DNA from: a virus | Taxonomy: Duplodnaviria; Heunggongvirae; Uroviricota; Caudoviricetes | Reading direction: 5' to 3' (one strand) | IMG/VR virus record: IMGVR_UViG_2648501186_000018 | Span: 1-8,224 of that record | Length of the DNA: 8,224 nucleotides | In this document: in pieces, positions 1-8,224 of the stretch | How the letters are laid out: each line of letters opens with the position of its first letter | How positions within the stretch are numbered: position 1 is the stretch's first letter | Position numbers and translations under genes: made by a program | Notes under the pieces: model-generated | Seen by the model: only the letters and a program-made list of their open reading frames with translations | Databases searched by the model: none | Told to the model about the DNA's origin: nothing

Positions 1-837
1 TTACGCCTTCTTTATATCCTCCATAATTTCAGAGTGGGACATATTTGGGACATTATCACCAAAAATGTCGTCTATTTTCCTCGCATGCTCTGTCAAATGA
101 TTAGGCGCAAGGTGAGCATACCTACGAACCATTTCTATGGACTCCCATCCGCCCATTTCCTGAAGCACTGATAATGGGACGCCTGACTGAATCAGCCAGC
201 TTGCCCAGGTGTGTCTGAGGTCATGGAAACGGAAATCTTCAATTCCTGCACGACGACAAGCTGATAGCCATGATGTCTTGCTGTCGATGCGCATCTTCCT
301 GACCGCAGGCGTTGATGTTCCATCTGCTCGCTTAGCCGCCTTGGTATGTACAAACACCCATTTGTGATGCTTGCCTATTTGATCACGCAACACTTTACAG
401 GCGGTATCGTTCAGCGCCACACCAATGGCGCGGTTTGATTTGCTCTCTTCTGGATTCACCCAGGCAACTCGTCGCTGCATGTCGATTTGTTGCCATTCCA
501 GATTTATGATGTTCGACTTTCTCAGACCAGTTGCCAGCGCAAACTTGACGACAGATTTCAGTGGTTCGGGGCACTCATCAATAAGGCGTTTTGCTTCCTC
601 CTTTTCCAGCCATCTGACTCGCTTGTTTCTGACCGCTGGTATCTTGATGACAGGCGCTTTTTCCAGCCACTTCCAGTCGCGTTCTGCAGCACGGAGAATG
701 GCCTTTATCATGGCAAGATGCTTTGCCTTTGTCTGAGTTGATACTGGCTTTGGTTCATAAACAGGCAGTTCTTTACCTTTCCTGATGGCGGCCTGAACTT
801 TCTGTTTCCATATTTCTTTCGTCTTTCTGTTATGCAT
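1..837 (-). CDS. int: Phage tyrosine integrase (DLP12 IntD-like), 5'-truncated. The homologous frame stays open up to 1026 but contains no ATG/GTG/TTG there; the first ATG at 837 gives 278 aa.
   Basis: The translation carries the tyrosine-recombinase C-terminal catalytic region (…[12 protein letters not shown]…[15 protein letters not shown]), with the HxxR box and the catalytic Tyr. Reading the same frame upstream of 837 gives …[55 protein letters not shown], which continues the integrase homology. The frame is closed by TGA at 1027-1029. The ~55 N-terminal residues (arm-binding domain) expected for this family are absent. Confidence 0.85.
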
Positions 838-1026
838 TCTGCTTACAGCAGAGTAAATCTTTGCCTCCGAGATATCTTTAAGCCTTATACCCTCAAAATG
901 TTCAAGCCAGAACTCAATCCGGCTTTTATCTGAATCGAGAGATTTTTTATCAGCTTTTTCCTCAAGCCATCTTAGGCAGGCCTCTTCAAAAGTGACATCA
1001 GGTACGCTGCAGGATAATGTCCGGTA

Positions 1027-1407
1027 TCATGCTGCCACCTTCTGCTCAGTGGCTTTCTGTTTCAGGAATCCAAGAGCTTTCACTGCTTCGGCCTGTGTCA
1101 GTTCTGACGATGCGCGAATGTCGCGGCGAAATATCTGGGAACAGAGCGGCAATAAGTCGTCATCCCATGTTTTATCCAGGGCGATCAGCAGAGTGTTAAT
1201 CTCCTGCATGGTTTCATCGTTAATGGCTTTTTTGCTGGCCCCGTGGCGTTGCAAATGATCGATGCATAGCGATTCAAACAGGTGCTGGGGCAGGCCTTTT
1301 TCCATGTCGTCTGCCAGTTCTGCCTCTTTCTCTTCACGGGCGATCTGCTGGTAGTAACGCGCCCAGCTCTGAGCCTCAAGACGATCCTGAATGTAATAAG
1401 CGTTCAT
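1027..1407 (-). CDS. Chimeric gam'-'bet ORF (126 aa). The first ~60 aa match lambda Gam from its internal GamS start; the last ~65 aa match the C-terminus of lambda Bet. Probable in-frame deletion product.
   Basis: N-terminus [60 protein letters not shown] matches the lambda Gam sequence as I recall it. C-terminus …[64 protein letters not shown] matches the end of lambda Bet as recalled. A strong Shine-Dalgarno AGGAG lies 7 nt upstream of the ATG at 1407. Both matches are from memory and need alignment to confirm. Confidence 0.75.
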
Positions 1408-1482
1408 GGCTGAACTCCTGAAAATGGCTGTGAAAATATCGCCCGCGAAATGCCAGGCTGATTAGGAAAACAGGAAAGGGGA

Positions 1483-1689
1483 TTAGCGATTCAGGCCGTT
1501 ACCGCGTCCGTCGAGAAAAACTTCCACGAGCAAATCACGGGTATAAGTGCGCTCGATGCCGCGATGCAGATAAAGCCGTCCGCGTAAATTAGCTGATGCA
1601 GTCCAGGTACCATCTTTGTGTTTGACCAGCATTCCTGGCATGACCGCACCTCGATTAACGGTCTGCGTTCCGTAATGTTGATGAACCAT
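1483..1689 (-). CDS. kil: Kil-like small protein (68 aa), similar to Rac KilR, a host FtsZ/cell-division inhibitor. The start is assigned to the ATG at 1689; the ORF track extends the frame to a TTG at 1893.
   Basis: An AGGAG Shine-Dalgarno sits 5 nt upstream of the ATG at 1687-1689. The product [68 protein letters not shown] aligns with my recollection of Rac KilR (shared PG…(V/L)xH…GT(W/Y)xASAN…R(K/R)LY…T(F/Y)xxD…(K/E)VFL). It lies immediately upstream of gam in the PL operon, which is the lambda kil position. The KilR match is from memory and needs confirmation. Confidence 0.55.
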
Positions 1690-1910
1690 AAAAACTCCTG
1701 CCCGTAAGCTGGGCTGCTGAACATATAGAGACTTCTGCGCGTATTCAGGCGGTGGATGGCCGCCGGTTGTCATAACTAAGCCGCCTCGTTGAAGCGACTG
1801 AGGTATAAAGTGTTGTGTTGATTTCAGCTGGTCACACCGACGTTCACGCGTCCGTTTCACCCCTCGCACTCCCCGAAGCCTGCTGAAATTCAAACTGCGG
1901 ATCTAAGCGG

Positions 1911-1962
1911 TCATCGCAACGGTGAAACAGGTGGTTACCGTATCGTTGTGTCGTTGCGATGA
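1911..1962 (-). repeat. Perfect 11-bp inverted repeat (TCATCGCAACG … CGTTGCGATGA) with a 30-nt spacer, at the 5' end of the predicted PL transcript.
   Basis: Read directly: 1911-1921 tcatcgcaacg and 1952-1962 cgttgcgatga are exact reverse complements. The spacer contains a second TCGTTG copy that could pair alternatively with the first arm. Confidence 0.7.
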
Positions 1963-1964
1963 AT

Positions 1965-2040
1965 TTATTTAAAACTATAGTTGTTTTATCGTCAACAACA
2001 AAAGTTGTTTTATCGGTTGTTTTAAATATAACTGGTTGTA
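1965..2040 (-). promoter_or_regulatory. PL promoter with OL operators (leftward early promoter).
   Basis: On the minus strand: -35 TTGACG (plus 1990-1995), 17-bp spacer, -10 TTAAAT (plus 1967-1972). The segment GTTGTTGACGATAAAACAACTATAGTTTTAAAT is near-identical to the PR segment GTTGTTGACTAAAAACAACCATAGTTTTAAT at 3514-3544. Operator-like elements: palindrome AACAAC-aaaa-GTTGTT at 1994-2009; GTTGTTTTATCG repeated at 1980-1991 and 2004-2015; further GTTGT copies at 2017-2021 and 2035-2039. Confidence 0.6.
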
Positions 2041-2132
2041 TTTAGGATGGATTTATTTTGTGACTTGCATCGCATAGCGATAACTGAAGTGAGGTGTGGT
2101 GGTTTTTTGGACGGTATGAGTTATGAGGGGGA

Positions 2133-2161
2133 GGAAAAGAAAACCCGGCGCGGTTGCCGGG
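2133..2161 (-). terminator. Rho-independent terminator ending the cI-lipoprotein transcript.
   Basis: GC stem cccggc (2144-2149) / gccggg (2156-2161) with loop gcggtt. On the minus strand it is followed by TTTTCTTTTCC, 9 nt downstream of the lipoprotein stop. Confidence 0.7.
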
Positions 2162-2169
2162 TATGATTA

Positions 2170-2550
2170 TCAGTCAGCCCAACCTGATTTCGAGTTTATT
2201 TGGGTTTCTGACATTGTGTATTTCTTAATCGTGTCATCGTTAAAAAGAATAGTAAGTTCTTTTTTCGTACCGTTCGTTCCGTTATGGAATAATCCATAGA
2301 ATGGAATAAAAGTGGTGCCATTAACTTTTACTTTTGCAAAGGCGTACTTCCAGATCTCCTTTCCACTGTCAGTATATGAAACAGCATCAGGAGAACCAAA
2401 GTAAGATTTAACCTCATTCTTGGTTGTTTTACCTTCCTGAAGTTTAGACTGGACACTAATTTCAGTTTCATTTTTGAGTTGCTGGTTGCCTGAAGAAGCA
2501 CACCCAGCCAATACAGATGCCATCATGGCAGCGATTAGGATTTTTCTCAT
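2170..2550 (-). CDS. Outer-membrane-type lipoprotein (126 aa) of unknown function, encoded immediately downstream of cI in the position lambda uses for rexAB.
   Basis: Signal peptide MRKILIAAMMASVLAGC with lipobox LAGC, and Ala at +2 after the Cys. An RBS GGAAAC precedes the start. The mature part shows a BamE/SmpA-OmlA-like motif pattern (G.T..EV...FG.PD…W.Y.F…LTILFN), which is my inference only. It is flanked by its own terminator and separated from cI by a 229-bp AT-rich spacer. Confidence 0.8.
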   Translation of the reverse strand: MRKILIAAMMASVLAGCASSGNQQLKNETEISVQSKLQEGKTTKNEVKSYFGSPDAVSYTDSGKEIWKYAFAKVKVNGTTFIPFYGLFHNGTNGTKKELTILFNDDTIKKYTMSETQINSKSGWAD

Positions 2551-2779
2551 TTTATGTTTCCATTCATTATAATCAGAAACATCTTAACATAATGATTCGA
2601 AATAAAAACCGCTACGAGATAGGGAGACATTTTGCTGACAGTAGCAACAAATCTCAGCTAACAACGAGAATATTTACTGAAATATGCAAACAGATTTGGC
2701 GTTCTTATAGAGAATTTAGTGCAATATCTAATCCGAGTGGTATAAACCTTAACCTTCGCTCCCTTAAGTCGTAGATAAA

Positions 2780-3469
2780 TTAACCATGCTTCCTGTACGT
2801 CTGCGGCATGCTTCCAATGACCTTACCGAATATGAACACCCGGTTCATCTCGTCTTTCTCGATCGGGTCCCACGGCGAGTAGCTCTTGTTATCAGAGATA
2901 ACCAGCAGCTTATCCTTCATCATTTGAAGACGTTTTACATGGGCAGTGTCGTCGTACAGAAACGCATAGATGCCATCACCGTCGAAAGATTTAACAGTGA
3001 TATCAACGAACAGCAGGTCACCTGGTTCGATCGTCCCTGACATGCTGTCACCTCGCACGTTAATGATGCGGATATTTTCCGCCTTCCTGCCATCGAACAT
3101 GTGACGAGCATCGTCAAACGAGTACTCAACCGAGCGTAGAACTTCTACAAACTCACGGTTGATTACACCTGGCCCGGCACTGACTTCTATATCAAGAACG
3201 TCAATTTTGAAGTATTTGGAATGGCTGACAGTTGATTGTATTGGTTGCACTGTACTGTCTGACATATTTCCAACGCCAGAAGATAACCATTCTGCGCGTA
3301 CACCCAAAGCGTTCGCGATCTCCACGATTTTAGTTGTTTGGTTAGCTTTCCCTGTTTCGATTTTCTGAATAGCAGCCTGGCTAACCCCGACCAAATCCCC
3401 AAGCGCCTTTTGTGTAAGGCCTCGCGCTAATCTGGCTTCTTTAAGTCTTTCTGAGAGTGTTGTTTTCAT
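2780..3469 (-). CDS. cI: CI-type prophage repressor: N-terminal XRE-family HTH plus C-terminal LexA-like S24 autopeptidase domain.
   Basis: HTH region LTQKALGDLVGVSQAAIQKIE. Ala-Gly cleavage site in EVSAGPG. Catalytic Ser in VRGDSM and Lys in HVKRL. It is divergent from cro across an operator region. The mRNA is probably leaderless or nearly so, since the PRM -10 lies about 7 nt upstream of the ATG. Confidence 0.95.
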   Translation of the reverse strand: MKTTLSERLKEARLARGLTQKALGDLVGVSQAAIQKIETGKANQTTKIVEIANALGVRAEWLSSGVGNMSDSTVQPIQSTVSHSKYFKIDVLDIEVSAGPGVINREFVEVLRSVEYSFDDARHMFDGRKAENIRIINVRGDSMSGTIEPGDLLFVDITVKSFDGDGIYAFLYDDTAHVKRLQMMKDKLLVISDNKSYSPWDPIEKDEMNRVFIFGKVIGSMPQTYRKHG

Positions 3470-3475
3470 AGATCA

Positions 3476-3546
3476 AATGTACAACCAAGGTTTTATTTCA
3501 TCAAACGAAAATGGTTGTTGACTAAAAACAACCATAGTTTTAATCT
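3476..3546. promoter_or_regulatory. OR operator region with divergent promoters PRM (leftward, cI) and PR (rightward, cro).
   Basis: PR: -35 TTGACT at 3518-3523, 17-bp spacer, -10 TAATCT at 3541-3546. PRM on the minus strand: -35 TTGATG (plus 3499-3504), 17-bp spacer, -10 TACATT (plus 3476-3481). Perfect 9-bp inverted repeat ATGGTTGTT-N7-AACAACCAT at 3511-3535 overlaps the PR -35. An additional ACAACCA half-site at 3481-3487 overlaps the PRM -10. Confidence 0.7.
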
Positions 3547-3573
3547 TGATTCGGATTAACCACGGAGGTTGTT

Positions 3574-3804
3574 ATGAACCCAGCAATCAAAACAGCGATC
3601 AATATCGTTGGTTCACAAAAGAAACTAGGCGATGCCTGCGAAGTTTCACAGCAGGCCGTCTATAAGTGGCTTCACAACAAAGCAAAGGTATCCCCTGAAC
3701 ATGTCGGCAGCATTGTTACGGCTACTGGTGGAGTTGTGAAGGCATACCAGATTCGCCCGGATCTTCCGAAGTTGTTTCCACACACCGAAAAGAACGCAGC
3801 TTAA
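3574..3804 (+). CDS. cro: Cro-like HTH regulator of the YdaS type (76 aa).
   Basis: First gene downstream of PR and divergent from cI. RBS GGAGG lies 6 nt upstream of the ATG. The family-like pattern AIxxxGSQxxLxxxxxVSQQAVxxW…GGV…RPDL matches the YdaS/Cro family as I recall it. Confidence 0.85.
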   Translation: MNPAIKTAINIVGSQKKLGDACEVSQQAVYKWLHNKAKVSPEHVGSIVTATGGVVKAYQIRPDLPKLFPHTEKNAA

Positions 3805-3816
3805 ATTTCCATTTCA

Positions 3817-3829
3817 CGCTCTTTAACAA
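3817..3829 (+). promoter_or_regulatory. boxA-like element (CGCTCTTTAACAA) in the cro-O spacer, at the nutR position; no convincing boxB hairpin follows.
   Basis: Matches the rrn/lambdoid boxA consensus GCTCTTTAACAA, 13 nt after the cro stop. Downstream there is only an AGTCAATT direct repeat (3847-3854 and 3867-3874), not a GC hairpin. Confidence 0.45.
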
Positions 3830-3873
3830 TAAGCAATCAACTTAACAGTCAATTCAAACTAAAGGAGTCAATT

Positions 3874-5046
3874 ATGCAACCACTTACATACCAACAGACT
3901 AGCGGATTTATTCCGACTGCGGTGATAAATCGTTCTCAAACAAAACAAGCTCCAGGCCACGAAAAAATCCGTGATGCCGTCCGCGCCTGGTCGGCTGTAG
4001 ATAATCAGGATGTCGTTGCCGCACTCATTGTGAATGAGTATCGGGAGCAGGGCGACGGCACCATCGATTTCCCTGATGATGTCAGCCGTGCACGCCAGAA
4101 GCTGTTCCGCTTCCTCGATAACAAATTCGATTCTGAAAAATACCGAAATAACGTGCGTGAACTGACCCCGGCAATTCTGGCGGTACTACCGCTGGAATAT
4201 CGCGGTTACCTGGTTGAGCAGGATAGCTTCATGACTCGGTTGGCCGGATTAACACAGCACCAGCTTCTGGTCTTCCTGGCTGTCATGCGCAAAACATATG
4301 GCTTTAATAAAAGACTGGATTGGGTGAGCAACGAGCAACTTTCCGAATTGACCGGGATATTGCCGCACAAGTGTTCTGCTGCAAAAAGCGTTCTGGTAAA
4401 GCGTGGGATTCTTATTCAGAGCGGGCGAAATATCGGCATTAATAATGTGGTCAGTGAATGGTCAACATTACCCGAATCAGGTAAGAAAAATAAAGTTTAC
4501 CTGAAAGAGGTAAATTTACCTGAATCAGGTAAGAAAAGTTTACCCAAATCAGGTAAAGGCGTTTACCCGAATCAGGTAAACACAAAAGACAAACTAACAA
4601 AAGACAATATAAAACCTTTTTCGTCCGAGAATTCTGGCGAATCCTCTGACCAGCCAGAAAACGACCTTCCTGTGGTGAAACCGGATGCTGCAATTCAGAG
4701 TGGCAGCAAGTGGGGGACAGCAGAAGACCTGACCGCCGCAGAGTGGATGTTTGACATGGTGAAGACCATCGCGCCATCAGCCAGAAAACCGAATTTTGCA
4801 GGGTGGGCTAACGATATCCGCCTGATGCGTGAACGTGACGGACGTAACCACCGCGACATGTGCGTGCTGTTCCGCTGGGCATGCCAGGACAACTTCTGGT
4901 CCGGTAACGTGCTGAGTCCGGCCAAACTCCGCGACAAGTGGACCCAGCTCGAAATCAACCGAAACAAGCAACAGGCTGGCGTGACAGCCGGCAAACCAAA
5001 ACTCGACCTGACGAACACTGACTGGATTTACGGGGTGGATTTATGA
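3874..5046 (+). CDS. O: Replication initiator, lambda O-like (390 aa), with the origin embedded in the gene.
   Basis: The N-terminal domain shares the lambda O signature (LTQHQLLVFLAVMRKTYGFNKRLDWVSNEQLSELTGILPHKCSAAKSVLVKRGILIQ versus lambda O LTKRQFKVLLAILRKTYGWNKPMDRITDSQLSEITKLP…). RBS AAGGAG precedes the start. The gene overlaps P by ATGA and contains the iterons listed separately. Confidence 0.9.
   Translation: MQPLTYQQTSGFIPTAVINRSQTKQAPGHEKIRDAVRAWSAVDNQDVVAALIVNEYREQGDGTIDFPDDVSRARQKLFRFLDNKFDSEKYRNNVRELTPAILAVLPLEYRGYLVEQDSFMTRLAGLTQHQLLVFLAVMRKTYGFNKRLDWVSNEQLSELTGILPHKCSAAKSVLVKRGILIQSGRNIGINNVVSEWSTLPESGKKNKVYLKEVNLPESGKKSLPKSGKGVYPNQVNTKDKLTKDNIKPFSSENSGESSDQPENDLPVVKPDAAIQSGSKWGTAEDLTAAEWMFDMVKTIAPSARKPNFAGWANDIRLMRERDGRNHRDMCVLFRWACQDNFWSGNVLSPAKLRDKWTQLEINRNKQQAGVTAGKPKLDLTNTDWIYGVDL
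4468..4579. repeat. Origin iterons: five 17-bp palindromic repeats TTACC-N7-GGTAA inside the O gene, followed by an A/T-rich stretch (4580-4622).
   Basis: Copies at 4468-4484, 4497-4513 (degenerate), 4516-4532, 4540-4556 and 4563-4579. They are mirrored in the protein as repeated PESGKK/PKSGK motifs. This is the lambda ori architecture, with different iteron sequence. Confidence 0.85.
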
Positions 5047-5744
5047 AAAACATCGCCGCACAGATGGTTAACTTTGACCGTGAGCAGATGCGCCGGATCG
5101 CCAACAATATGCCGGAACAGTACGACGAAAAGCCGCAGGTACAGCAGGTAGCGCAGATCATCAACGGTGTGTTCAGCCAGTTACTGGCAACTTTCCCGGC
5201 GAGCCTGGCTAACCGTGACCAGAATGAACTGAACGAAATCCGCCGCCAGTGGGTTCTGGCTTTCCGGGAAAACGGGATCACCACAATGGAACAGGTTAAC
5301 GCTGGAATGCGCGTAGCCCGTCGGCAGAATCGACCATTCCTGCCATCACCCGGGCAGTTTGTCGCCTGGTGCCGGGAAGAAGCATCTGTTAACGCCGGGC
5401 TGCCAAACGTCAGCGAGCTGGTTGATATGGTTTACGAGTATTGCCGGAAGCGTGGCCTGTATCCGGATGCAGAGTCTTATCCGTGGAAATCGAACGCGCA
5501 TTACTGGTTGGTTACCAACTTGTACCAGAACATGCGGGCCAATGCGCTGGCTGACGCGGAATTACGGCGCAAGGCTGCCGATGAACTGACCTGTATGACA
5601 GCGCGAATTAACCGTGGTGAGACGATACCTGAACCAGTAAAACAACTTCCTGTTATGGGCGGTAGACCTCTAAATCGTGCACAGGCTCTGGCGAAGATCG
5701 CAGAAATTAAAGCTAAGTTCGGACTGAAAGGAGCAAGTGTATGA
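5043..5744 (+). CDS. P: Replication protein P (DnaB helicase loader), nearly identical to lambda P.
   Basis: The 233-aa product MKNIAAQMVNFDREQMRRIANNMPEQYDEKPQVQQVAQIINGV…AKFGLKGASV matches lambda P as recalled, with only a few substitutions. The start overlaps the O stop (ATGA) and the stop overlaps the ren start. Confidence 0.95.
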   Translation: MKNIAAQMVNFDREQMRRIANNMPEQYDEKPQVQQVAQIINGVFSQLLATFPASLANRDQNELNEIRRQWVLAFRENGITTMEQVNAGMRVARRQNRPFLPSPGQFVAWCREEASVNAGLPNVSELVDMVYEYCRKRGLYPDAESYPWKSNAHYWLVTNLYQNMRANALADAELRRKAADELTCMTARINRGETIPEPVKQLPVMGGRPLNRAQALAKIAEIKAKFGLKGASV

Positions 5745-6043
5745 CGGGCAAAGAGGCAATTATTCATTACCTGGGGACGCATAAGAGCTTCTGTGCACAG
5801 GACGTTGCCGCGGTAACAGGCGCAACCGTAACCAGCATAAATCAGGCTGCGGCTAAAATGGCGCGGGCAGGAATCCTGGTCGTTGATGGTAAGGTCTGGC
5901 GAACGGTGTATTACCGGTTCGCTACCAGAGAAGAATGGGAAGGAAAGGTGAGCACGAATCTGATTTTTAAGGAGTGTCGCCAGAGTGCCGCGATGAAACG
6001 GGTATTGAGGGTATATAAAAGAACATCAATGGGAACACAATGA
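5741..6043 (+). CDS. ren: Ren (lambda ren-like; protects against Rex exclusion), 100 aa.
   Basis: MTGKEAIIHYLGTHKSFCAQDVAAVTGATVTSINQAAAKMARAGILVVDGKVWRTVYYRFATREEWEGK… matches lambda Ren as recalled. The C-terminal tail differs slightly. The start overlaps the P stop by ATGA. Confidence 0.9.
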   Translation: MTGKEAIIHYLGTHKSFCAQDVAAVTGATVTSINQAAAKMARAGILVVDGKVWRTVYYRFATREEWEGKVSTNLIFKECRQSAAMKRVLRVYKRTSMGTQ

Positions 6044-6060
6044 TGAAACAGGTGAGTTGA

Positions 6061-6095
6061 GTTCAAACTGTAGTACAATTCTCTCCAGTTTGAAC
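6061..6095 (+). repeat. Perfect 10-bp inverted repeat GTTCAAACTG-N15-CAGTTTGAAC in the emrE 5' leader.
   Basis: Read directly; it lies between the ren stop (6043) and the emrE RBS. No T-tract follows, so it is not a classical terminator. Confidence 0.6.
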
Positions 6096-6110
6096 AGGAA
6101 AGAATATGCT

Positions 6111-6443
6111 ATGAACCCTTATATTTATCTTGGTGGTGCAATACTTGCAGAGGTCATTGGTACAGCCTTAATGAAGTTTTCAGAAGGTTTTACACGGTTA
6201 TGGCCATCTGTTGGTACAATTATTTGTTATTGTGCATCATTCTGGTTATTAGCTCAGACGCTGGCTTATATTCCTACAGGGATTGCTTATGCTATCTGGT
6301 CAGGAGTCGGTATTGTCCTGATTAGCTTACTGTCATGGGGATTTTTCGGCCAACGGCTGGACCTGCCAGCCATTATAGGCATGATGTTGATTTGTGCCGG
6401 TGTGTTGATTATTAATTTATTGTCACGAAGCACACCACATTAA
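6111..6443 (+). CDS. emrE: EmrE small multidrug resistance (SMR) efflux transporter, 110 aa.
   Basis: The product MNPYIYLGGAILAEVIGT.LMKFSEGFTRLWPSVGTIICYCASFWLLAQTLAYIPTGIAYAIWSGVGIVLISLLSWGFFGQRLDLPAIIGMMLICAGVLIINLLSRSTPH matches E. coli EmrE as recalled, with four TM-like hydrophobic segments. The ORF-track start at 6057 is a TTG extension; the real start is the ATG at 6111, preceded by AGGAAAG. Confidence 0.95.
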   Translation: MNPYIYLGGAILAEVIGTALMKFSEGFTRLWPSVGTIICYCASFWLLAQTLAYIPTGIAYAIWSGVGIVLISLLSWGFFGQRLDLPAIIGMMLICAGVLIINLLSRSTPH

Positions 6444-6473
6444 AATAATTTGTTTCTAAACGACTAAAATATG

Positions 6474-6512
6474 GAGGCTCTTATATTTATATGAGCCTCG
6501 TTTTATGCTTTT
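6474..6512 (+). terminator. Rho-independent terminator downstream of emrE.
   Basis: Stem gaggctc (6474-6480) / gagcctc (6493-6499) with a 12-nt AT loop, followed by TTTTATGCTTTTT. Confidence 0.65.
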
Positions 6513-6697
6513 TGTTAATGTCTTTATTTTTTATGTATTCTTTTGTGCTTTCAAGATTATGGCGTAAGAAAATTGCAATACGATTATTGTTGTATATTCA
6601 AGATAATGTGACCTTAATTGTCTTTTTAAATAAAAAATAAACAAAAATTATATCCCACCACTAAGGTTTATAAAAGCATACGTTAGCAGGTGTCACC

Positions 6698-8224
6698 ATG
6701 AAAAAAGCCATAGCATATATGCGATTTTCATCACCAGGTCAGATGTCTGGCGACTCATTAAACCGACAGAGAAGACTTATTGCTGAATGGTTAAAGGTAA
6801 ATAGTGATTATTATCTTGATACCATAACATATGAAGATTTAGGATTAAGTGCATTCAAAGGAAAGCATGCACAATCAGGAGCTTTTTCGGAATTTTTAGA
6901 TGCTATAGAGCATGGTTATATATTGCCAGGAACTACATTGTTAGTTGAAAGTCTGGACAGACTTTCAAGAGAAAAAGTCGGTGAAGCGATTGAACGTCTG
7001 AAATTGATTTTGAATCACGGTATTGATGTTATAACTCTTTGCGACAATACAGTCTATAATATTGGCTCTTTGAATGAGCCATATTCATTAATAAAAGCCA
7101 TACTTATAGCACAAAGGGCAAATGAAGAAAGCGAGATAAAGTCAAGTCGGGTTAAATTATCATGGAAGAAAAAACGGCAGGATGCACTGGAATCAGGTAC
7201 GATTATGACGGCGTCTTGTCCGAGATGGCTCTCCTTAGATGACAAAAGAACGGCTTTTGTTCCAGACCCCGACAGGGTGAAAACTATTGAGCTAATTTTT
7301 AAACTCAGGATGGAAAGGCGCTCATTGAATGCAATAGCCAAGTATTTAAATGATCATGCTGTAAAGAATTTCTCAGGAAAAGAAAGTGCATGGGGACCTT
7401 CTGTAATTGAAAAATTATTAGCGAATAAAGCTCTGATAGGTATTTGCGTACCTTCATATCGTGCAAGAGGGAAAGGGATAAGTGAAATCGCTGGCTATTA
7501 TCCCAGAGTCATATCAGATGATTTGTTTTACGCTGTACAGGAAATTCGGTTGGCACCTTTTGGTATTAGCAATAGTAGCAAGAATCCTATGCTAATAAAT
7601 CTACTTCGAACAGTTATGAAGTGTGAGGCTTGTGGTAATACCATGATTGTTCATGCGGTATCTGGAAGTTTGCATGGCTATTATGTTTGTCCGATGAGAA
7701 GATTACATCGATGTGACAGGCCATCAATAAAAAGAGATTTGGTTGATTATAATATCATTAATGAATTGCTTTTTAATTGTAGCAAAATTCAACCAGTTGA
7801 AAACAAGAAAGATGCTAATGAAACTTTAGAGTTAAAAATTATTGAGCTTCAGATGAAAATTAATAATTTAATCGTTGCATTGTCTGTCGCGCCTGAAGTT
7901 ACCGCTATAGCAGAGAAAATAAGACTATTAGATAAGGAATTACGAAGGGCTTCGGTATCATTGAAAACTTTGAAGAGTAAAGGTGTAAATTCATTCAGTG
8001 ATTTTTATGCTATTGACTTAACCAGTAAAAATGGACGAGAGTTATGCCGTACACTTGCCTATAAAACATTCGAAAAAATCATAATTAATACGGATAATAA
8101 AACCTGTGATATCTATTTTATGAATGGCATTGTTTTTAAACACTATCCTTTAATGAAAGTAATATCCGCCCAGCAGGCGATAAGTGCTCTCAAATATATG
8201 GTTGATGGTGAGATTTATTTCTAA
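6698..8224 (+). CDS. ybcK: Large serine recombinase, YbcK-like (508 aa): resolvase-type catalytic domain, recombinase domain, zinc-ribbon and coiled-coil.
   Basis: N-terminal catalytic motif AYMRFSSPGQ…R with the Ser nucleophile. Cys-rich zinc-ribbon CEACGN…CPMRRLHRC. Coiled-coil segment LELKIIELQMKINNLIVAL. RBS AGGTG lies 6 nt upstream. It follows emrE as in K-12 DLP12 (from memory). Confidence 0.9.
   Translation: MKKAIAYMRFSSPGQMSGDSLNRQRRLIAEWLKVNSDYYLDTITYEDLGLSAFKGKHAQSGAFSEFLDAIEHGYILPGTTLLVESLDRLSREKVGEAIERLKLILNHGIDVITLCDNTVYNIGSLNEPYSLIKAILIAQRANEESEIKSSRVKLSWKKKRQDALESGTIMTASCPRWLSLDDKRTAFVPDPDRVKTIELIFKLRMERRSLNAIAKYLNDHAVKNFSGKESAWGPSVIEKLLANKALIGICVPSYRARGKGISEIAGYYPRVISDDLFYAVQEIRLAPFGISNSSKNPMLINLLRTVMKCEACGNTMIVHAVSGSLHGYYVCPMRRLHRCDRPSIKRDLVDYNIINELLFNCSKIQPVENKKDANETLELKIIELQMKINNLIVALSVAPEVTAIAEKIRLLDKELRRASVSLKTLKSKGVNSFSDFYAIDLTSKNGRELCRTLAYKTFEKIIINTDNKTCDIYFMNGIVFKHYPLMKVISAQQAISALKYMVDGEIYF

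Follow-up and report, generated by a model that had tools for sequence, protein, structure and literature searches.

The DNA analysed here, referred to as the window, is a stretch of 8,224 nucleotides (nt) covering positions 1 to 8,224 of the Caudoviricetes record IMGVR_UViG_2648501186_000018 in IMG/VR, and our analysis concerns a gene for a small lipoprotein on its minus strand, located directly downstream of a cI-type repressor gene. In phage lambda, rexAB and the terminator tIMM hold the position between cI and the leftward operators and early promoter (OL/PL). The lipoprotein gene occupies the slot equivalent to that of rexAB, on the cI strand and upstream of the terminator of the transcription unit. 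The elements of the locus are the following:

1969-2045 (approximate), minus strand: OL/PL, the leftward early promoter and its operators, on the far side of the slot, with inverted matches to the rightward operators (OR)
2133-2162, minus strand: intrinsic terminator closing the immunity unit, the counterpart of tIMM in lambda, identified by terminator scan, folding and conservation in sibling phages
2170-2550, minus strand: lipoprotein gene, an open reading frame (ORF) of 126 amino acids (aa) whose product starts MRKILIAAMMASVLAG followed by Cys, with a mature part of BamE/BLIP-like fold
2281-2313, minus strand: codons 80-90, the family-specific conserved hairpin TFIPFYGLFHN, missing in BamE and a candidate interaction surface
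2500-2550, minus strand: signal peptide of type II with the lipobox LAG-C, read from the sequence (Cys17 codon TGT at 2500-2502)
2551-2595, minus strand: conserved upstream block with a candidate extended -10 element, TGTTAAGAT (2581-2589), and the Shine-Dalgarno sequence GGAAA (2557-2561)
2566-2571 (plus-strand numbering), minus strand: TATAAT, probably not a promoter -10
2596-2779, minus strand: AT-rich spacer of the E. coli version, with the 3' half of a decayed upstream terminator at 2600-2615 (GTAGCGGTTTTTATTT)
2780-3469, minus strand: cI-type repressor (HTH_3 and Peptidase_S24, Pfam), the upstream gene of the lipoprotein's transcription unit
3500-3543, no strand assigned: OR region with PR and PRM, between cI and cro, including the 25-bp palindrome ATGGTTGTTGACTAAAAACAACCAT

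The far border of the slot was recognized from its operators. The OL/PL region (1969-2045) and the OR region (3500-3543) have operator words in common in inverted orientation, including one 19-nt match at 95%, and both contain the arrangement GTTGTTGAC..AACAAC..ATAGTTTTAA. Because OL/PL carries the operator words of OR, the lipoprotein gene sits between cI and OL/PL; PL itself points left to kil, identified by its PHROG Kil match. An earlier note on this DNA had placed the gene directly downstream of cI, on the same strand and in the rexAB position, and the finding of OL/PL at about 1969-2045 bears this out. The 229-bp AT-rich spacer that it had described is likewise correct, the interval between the cI stop codon and the lipoprotein start (2551-2779) being exactly 229 nt long with a GC content of 33.6%.

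When compared to related phages, the content of the slot proved exchangeable. The inducible phage PhiR26_1 carries the same region at 99.4% identity, lipoprotein gene included. PhiR47_2 has a cI identical at 228 of 229 positions (99%), yet GevT/GevA lie between this cI and the same terminator (locus L018, 3271-4699), and PhiR70_1 combines the same flanks with three other ORFs in the slot. Similarity to the sibling phages ends exactly at the cI stop codon and resumes at the terminator hairpin CCCGGCnACCGnGCCGGGTTTTCTTTT, and since the homology breakpoints fall at these two points, the cargo module corresponds to 2163-2779. Two traits expected of a moron were observed, as the lipoprotein gene is replaced at the same place in PhiR47_2 and PhiR70_1 and the module differs in GC content from its neighbours (36% vs 47% in cI; 38% in the gene itself, 33.6% in the spacer, 46.8% in cI before rounding and 44% in the whole window). 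Among complete E. coli genomes, the cI type was present in 2211 of 5426 and the lipoprotein in 78 of 5426, always adjoining a prophage repressor. We therefore assign a high probability (about 0.9) to the anatomical part of our reading, namely that the lipoprotein gene is horizontally exchanged cargo in the slot between cI and OL/PL.

Regarding the terminator, its hairpin (2162-2143) begins 7 nt past the end of the ORF and consists of 7 bp, six of them G-C pairs, followed by TTTTCTTTT, with a folding energy of -14.1 kcal/mol (z -2.7). PhiR47_2 and PhiR70_1 keep both hairpin and T-run despite their other cargo, and because these sibling phages share the hairpin, the terminator belongs to the slot and not to the gene. 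The homologues found in the tail slot described below lack a terminator and run directly into a 95-aa ORF. Thus, the strong intrinsic terminator reported in the earlier note is present, but it is not the gene's own, being common to phages with different cargo; similarly, of the moron architecture proposed there, the swappable, low-GC cargo stands and the private terminator does not, the hairpin being a constant feature of the slot. A self-contained moron marked by its terminator was ruled out by the sibling-phage alignment.

The comparison shows the cI-PL slot to be a hotspot for toxin or defence-type cargo in the related phage group; a literature search on GevT/GevA gave only unrelated papers. 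In a related phage, the same slot (locus L027, 2259-3913) contains genes encoding a HipA-like kinase and a DUF3037 protein. Additionally, in Citrobacter and Scandinavium prophages (loci L003, L027 and L032) a terminator, CCCGGCCACCGCGCCGGGTTTTT, lies upstream of the lipoprotein cassette, and its hairpin and that of the slot terminator downstream are of one family. Judging from these sequences, copies of the slot-terminator hairpin appear to flank the individual units of stacked cargo, and the hairpin may serve as a recombination joint.

The product of the gene has the characteristics of a signal peptidase II substrate: a positive start (MRK), a hydrophobic core (ILIAAMMASV) and a lipobox that reads directly as L14-A15-G16-C17, with Ala at +2 and Ser at +3. 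Cys17 is unchanged across 86 diverse relatives. In E. coli, Ala at +2 and Ser at +3 lead to outer-membrane sorting. Asp, the Lol avoidance signal, is absent at +2, where the window has Ala and some relatives have Val, and +3 is Ser; by the sorting rule, the lipoprotein is predicted to be of the outer-membrane type. Among close homologues the signal peptide drifts and the mature part is nearly invariant, with a rate of nonsynonymous substitution (dN) of ~0.1 and a saturated synonymous rate (dS), which gives a dN/dS of ~0.05 over the mature part. Given this ratio, the reading frame is not merely accidental. The exact protein is present on 578 contigs and corresponds to UniProt A0A3A6SJA8, annotated as 'uncharacterized'; the sequence is already in the databases, so what is new here is the reading of the gene and not the gene itself.

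The protein belongs to a large family. Close homologues, 71-88% identical, occur in Citrobacter, Enterobacter, Cronobacter, Serratia, and other genera, and a profile search retrieved 1818 clusters at 50% identity. Against the Pfam BamE family (PF04355), the window protein scored 21.5 bits (E 2e-4), below the gathering cut-off of 23.2, and 72 of the 86 diverse family members matched it, the best with E 2.4e-11. The hhalign comparison with E. coli BamE gave 88% probability (E 3e-6) at an identity of ~22-24%, and the PDB profile match to BamE was weak (E 0.03). NCBIfam matches (Ag473, TrsH, YgdI/YgdR, Lpp, and others) were rejected, being far below their cut-offs and mostly or entirely driven by the signal peptide. 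In the hhalign alignment, BamE has a gap of ~12 residues at the FIPFYGLFHN hairpin, in which F81, I82, P83, Y85, G86, F88, H89, N90, and the following G91 are invariant within the close clade; P83 is nearly invariant in the wide family.

Structure prediction pointed to the same fold. The AlphaFold2 (AF2) model built from a diverse alignment reached a predicted local distance difference test (pLDDT) score of 76.9, vs 63.9 for an earlier, shallow alignment (>70% identity), with a core above 90 and low confidence in the hairpin at residues 80-90. The model shows the two helices packed on a three-stranded sheet that define the BamE fold, and its structural matches were E. coli BamE (score 8.7; root-mean-square deviation 2.6 Å over 82 residues), the BLIP-like protein 3d4e (7.8), the Bacteroides type VI secretion system (T6SS) immunity protein BtiO (7.3), and OsmE (6.5). 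In a Foldseek search against the PDB, the top seven matches were all BamE chains, and BFVD gave weak matches only, to SmpA/OmlA lipoproteins of Pseudomonas phages. The BamE/SmpA-OmlA-like mature part recognized in the earlier note is thus supported by the Pfam matches of 72 of 86 members, by hhalign, and by the AF2 match, and the profile analysis and structure prediction that it had proposed for the mature protein both lead to the BamE fold. The window protein is a BamE-fold paralogue and not the housekeeping BamE, so the name 'outer membrane protein assembly factor BamE', given by the Prokaryotic Genome Annotation Pipeline (PGAP), over-reaches for it.

The relatives occupy two phage positions. 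A survey of homologous prophages, as suggested in the earlier note, showed that the cI-PL slot recurs in E. coli, Citrobacter, Enterobacter, Pseudocitrobacter, and Salmonella phages. Specifically, the immunity slot (downstream of an S24/CI repressor and upstream of the early-left operon) is used in prophages of Citrobacter, Enterobacter, Pseudocitrobacter, Pseudescherichia, and C. pasteurii, as well as in the Salmonella phages S107, S135, and S137, with other cargo sometimes stacked ahead of the lipoprotein gene. The second position is a tail slot, between the tail chaperone (DUF6246) and tape-measure genes, in prophages of Serratia, Phytobacter, and Biostraticola and in Klebsiella phage RAH1, where neighbours include SocA/Panacea and YafO-type genes. 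The position between tail chaperone and tape measure is that of HK97 gene 15, the original moron, which acts in superinfection exclusion (PMC3594210). Another relative is located on a Modicisalibacter island with AlpA and SLATT genes. Additionally, one E. coli copy bears the PGAP name 'SEN1984 family lipoprotein'; the gene SEN1984 itself, 378 nt long, encodes a lipoprotein on the Salmonella Enteritidis island ROD21, for which Phyre2 predicts a BamE-like structure (PMC10655114). Taken with the chromosomal relatives considered below, the phage copies look like a captured bacterial envelope gene.

Some of these loci carry small neighbouring genes. In the Serratia tail-slot copies (L014, 5381-5668, and L015-L017), a 95-aa ORF with a signal peptide overlaps the lipoprotein stop codon and has no PADLOC match; the overlap suggests a two-gene exported cassette in the Serratia tail slot, a partner that is not found in the window. 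In most immunity-slot loci of Citrobacter, Enterobacter, and Salmonella, the lipoprotein gene and the early-left operon are separated by a gene of 68-75 aa in the opposite orientation (L002-L011, ~6410-6720; L104, 3923-4150), which the window lacks and for which neither Pfam nor PADLOC gave a match. PADLOC likewise returned no match for three neighbours in the related loci.

Upstream of the gene, a block of ~45 nt before the ATG is retained in immunity-slot, tail-slot, and chromosomal copies, its conservation beginning at TGTTA(A/G)GAT, which fits the motif of an extended -10, TGnTAnnnT; in Serratia, where another type of upstream sequence exists, TGCTACCAT stands at the corresponding position. 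Written as TGNTANNNT, this extended -10 was found in 14 of 19 loci at -51 to -38 (shuffles: mean 1.1, maximum 6), a count that does not amount to a probability, as the loci are related. From this conservation, the extended -10 TGTTAAGAT (2581-2589) is a better promoter candidate than the TATAAT at 2566-2571, which the earlier note had offered as a possible promoter of the gene. The hexamer does exist on the minus strand at that position, but its promoter role did not survive the comparison. Relatives read TGCAAT where the window has TATAAT, making it window-specific, and a consensus scan gave no minus-strand promoter at 2566-2571. It also ends only 15 nt upstream of the ATG, so that a transcript would begin inside or after the Shine-Dalgarno sequence; because this gap leaves GGAAA (2557-2561) off the transcript, TATAAT is unlikely as a promoter, and it was discarded in favour of the conserved extended -10.

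The remainder of the spacer (2596-2779) is matched by PhiR26_1 only. In most relatives, an intact hairpin and T-run lie just upstream of the conserved block; of this terminator the window retains the 3' half only (2600-2615). Since an intact terminator precedes the block in those relatives and shields it from transcription arriving from upstream, they would need a private promoter. In the window, a terminator scan found none between cI and the lipoprotein gene, and 2596-2779 folds no better than shuffled sequences (z -0.5). As no intact terminator separates cI from the gene, read-through into it is to be expected, probably from PRM. A structured leader or small RNA in the 229-nt spacer was considered and dropped, the folding being no better than that of shuffles (z -0.3).

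Taken together, these features suggest how the gene may act. In a lysogen, it would be transcribed in two ways, by read-through from PRM and from its own extended -10 (TGTTAAGAT, 2581-2589), with transcription halting at the slot terminator ahead of OL/PL. The lipoprotein would then be anchored in the inner leaflet of the outer membrane, facing the periplasm, where the conserved hairpin FIPFYGLFHN could bind a conserved host envelope component and alter the envelope of the lysogen. The likeliest benefit would be superinfection exclusion, either because an outer-membrane receptor is inactivated from within the periplasm, in the way Cor and Llp act on FhuA, or because genome entry is blocked. 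Cor (phi80, N15, HK022) and Llp (T5) are phage outer-membrane lipoproteins that inactivate FhuA. We put the probability that superinfection exclusion is the function of the lipoprotein at about 0.35-0.4, a tentative assignment that ranks first because of the two slots used and the cargo that keeps company there. The neighbouring slot cargo is defence-like (GevTA, HipA-like, SocA/Panacea, YafO), and although recombination genes are gone from the window prophage and its replication gene is a fusion, its cI and lipoprotein genes are 99.9% intact. Strong cross-genus conservation would fit a conserved host target and not a fast-evolving phage target. In a more specific version, which we consider improbable, the protein would be a phage-borne BamE mimic whose FIP hairpin docks either on the beta-barrel assembly machine (BAM) complex or on an outer-membrane protein, nascent or already assembled; in lysogens it might act allosterically, so that phages or contact-dependent toxins could no longer enter through BamA or another beta-barrel, or it might shift the set of receptors being assembled. 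Were this true, the exclusion mechanism would act on the outer-membrane assembly machine itself.

Several results weigh against the exclusion function. For the mature protein, no homology to Cor, Llp, or Bor was found, neither Pfam nor NCBIfam giving such a match, and, in agreement with the earlier note, which had seen no resemblance to these three proteins, the PHROG Cor match (E 0.064) covers only residues 1-47, the signal peptide region. PHROG 3135 has no assigned function, and PADLOC gave no defence-family match to the lipoprotein (E up to 0.1). The AF2 model is only moderately confident and the conserved hairpin is poorly modelled; the proposed promoter has a poor -35 and is deduced from conservation only. 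Moreover, Buttiauxella, Rouxiella, and a Serratia species have close homologues whose surroundings appear to be chromosomal and not of phage origin, and a more distant homologue lies among housekeeping genes; given such copies, a general envelope role unrelated to phages is possible. A literature search (BamE/SmpA combined with prophage, exclusion, or moron) found no functional study of the family, and the Nature 2026 SNIPE paper, which uses the PhiR phage panel, does not mention the lipoprotein gene.

The chromosomal copies outside prophages speak for the idea that the lipoprotein is a lysogenic-conversion envelope factor with no anti-phage role, improving host fitness much as Bor/Iss do, for example by helping the cell to resist serum or complement, to tolerate envelope stress, or to keep its outer membrane intact. 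This explanation, which we regard as somewhat unlikely, also draws on SEN1984, a family member by its PGAP name, being carried on the Salmonella pathogenicity island ROD21, on the very strong cross-genus conservation, which suggests a general cellular role, and on the intact version of the prophage carrying other conversion genes (emrE, a porin, and iss). However, both slots preferred in phages are typical for exclusion or defence cargo, and no phenotype is known, SEN1984 itself being uncharacterised. The fold would also allow a periplasmic inhibitor or immunity protein, in which the BamE/BLIP-like domain neutralises a T6SS effector, a colicin or bacteriocin, a peptidoglycan hydrolase, or the phage's own lysis protein; with no cognate toxin or enzyme gene adjoining in any examined context, and with a fold resemblance that is generic and comes without sequence relation to a known immunity family in Pfam or NCBIfam, we judge it improbable.

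That the protein is a working BamE, a spare or replacement BAM subunit docking on BamA/BamD, is what the PGAP label implies, and it is very unlikely: identity to BamE is ~22-24%, the Pfam score is below threshold, a conserved insertion of ~12 residues is present, and the PDB profile E value is 0.03. Furthermore, E. coli already has bamE, and the additional gene, which among 5426 E. coli genomes occurs in 78 and there without exception in a prophage, is not a core gene; what the protein shares with BamE is a domain fold, and not the confident match to a housekeeping family that the earlier note had considered. Finally, the three deletions of the window prophage relative to its intact relatives could make the gene a decaying, non-functional passenger ORF of a defective prophage. 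The ORF is, however, intact and 100% identical to copies in other genomes (578 contigs), it is present in the inducible PhiR26_1, and the dN/dS of ~0.05 across genera effectively refutes this explanation, leaving it a negligible probability. Superinfection exclusion thus continues to be our preferred, tentative reading.

Regarding its significance, cargo beside prophage repressors supplies many exclusion and defence functions, and the outer-membrane exclusion proteins understood so far are few. The lipoprotein family is widespread (1818 clusters), strongly constrained, and recurrent in two classical accessory slots of enterobacterial temperate phages, and the databases mislabel it as housekeeping BamE or leave it hypothetical. 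Its function is directly testable, because the inducible carrier PhiR26_1 grows on E. coli K-12 and PhiR47_2 is a sibling with a 99% identical cI and other cargo. If exclusion or conversion were confirmed, the family would provide a new fold class among phage-encoded envelope factors, and a common annotation error would be corrected.

The surrounding prophage was compared to the intact DLP12-family prophage at argU of E. coli strain 1428, which revealed three deletions in the window, at 998-1004, 1221-1223, and 4241-4244. A deletion of ~2.3 kb removed the region between the int flank and the 3' part of bet, which in L020 contains the DUF4222, TraR/DksA, DUF1382, DUF1317, and exonuclease genes; another, of ~0.7 kb, created a gam'-'bet fusion ORF (1027-1407), and one of 383 nt fused a YdaT-like gene in frame to the replication gene O (ORF 3874-5046). 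The prophage is grounded, and its cI and lipoprotein genes are still 99.9% identical to those of the intact relative. Immediately after PL, the transcript of the minus-strand segment 1860-1972 would form two hairpins, one with a perfect 11-bp stem (1911-1921/1952-1962), with a folding energy of -34 kcal/mol (z -2.55). These may be put-like or nut-like antitermination RNA; an N-like ORF between PL and kil was not found, the segment had no Rfam match, and an Rfam scan of the whole window gave nothing credible. As in K-12 DLP12, ren is followed by emrE, whose product is a small multidrug resistance pump, and by a serine recombinase gene of the ybcK type (6057-6443 and 6698-8224). Since emrE is present in the window and the intact relative also has a porin and iss/bor, the prophage family holds several conversion genes.

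The window lipoprotein belongs among the phage accessory envelope lipoproteins, and its comparison with known systems is as follows. With lambda rexA-rexB it shares position and strand logic, downstream of cI and before the terminator that precedes OL/PL, as well as the expectation of expression in the lysogen, and the slot of the sibling phages holds defence-type cargo such as GevT/GevA. In contrast, the proteins are unrelated, RexAB being a two-component, inner-membrane abortive infection system and the gene described here encoding one small exported lipoprotein, with a private promoter-like block that moves along with it. HK97 gp15 has the same moron-like traits of low GC content and patchy presence, whereas it is an inner-membrane protein, is not a lipoprotein, and has no homology to the window protein, whose gene lies in the immunity slot. 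SEN1984 is likewise a mobile-element lipoprotein with a BamE-like prediction and likewise uncharacterised, tied to the family by PGAP name only; its gene resides on the excisable island ROD21 and not in a prophage immunity region. Unlike the core gene bamE, the window gene is accessory and mobile, and its product has the hairpin insertion of ~12 residues, longer strands, and a Pfam score below threshold. Cor and Llp, as small phage-encoded lipoproteins sorted to the outer membrane that exclude phages from the periplasmic side, provide the working model proposed here, but they have no sequence relation to the window protein, whose fold class is BamE/BLIP-like. The BLIP-like inhibitors and BtiO use this same fold in the cell envelope to bind proteins tightly or to inhibit them.
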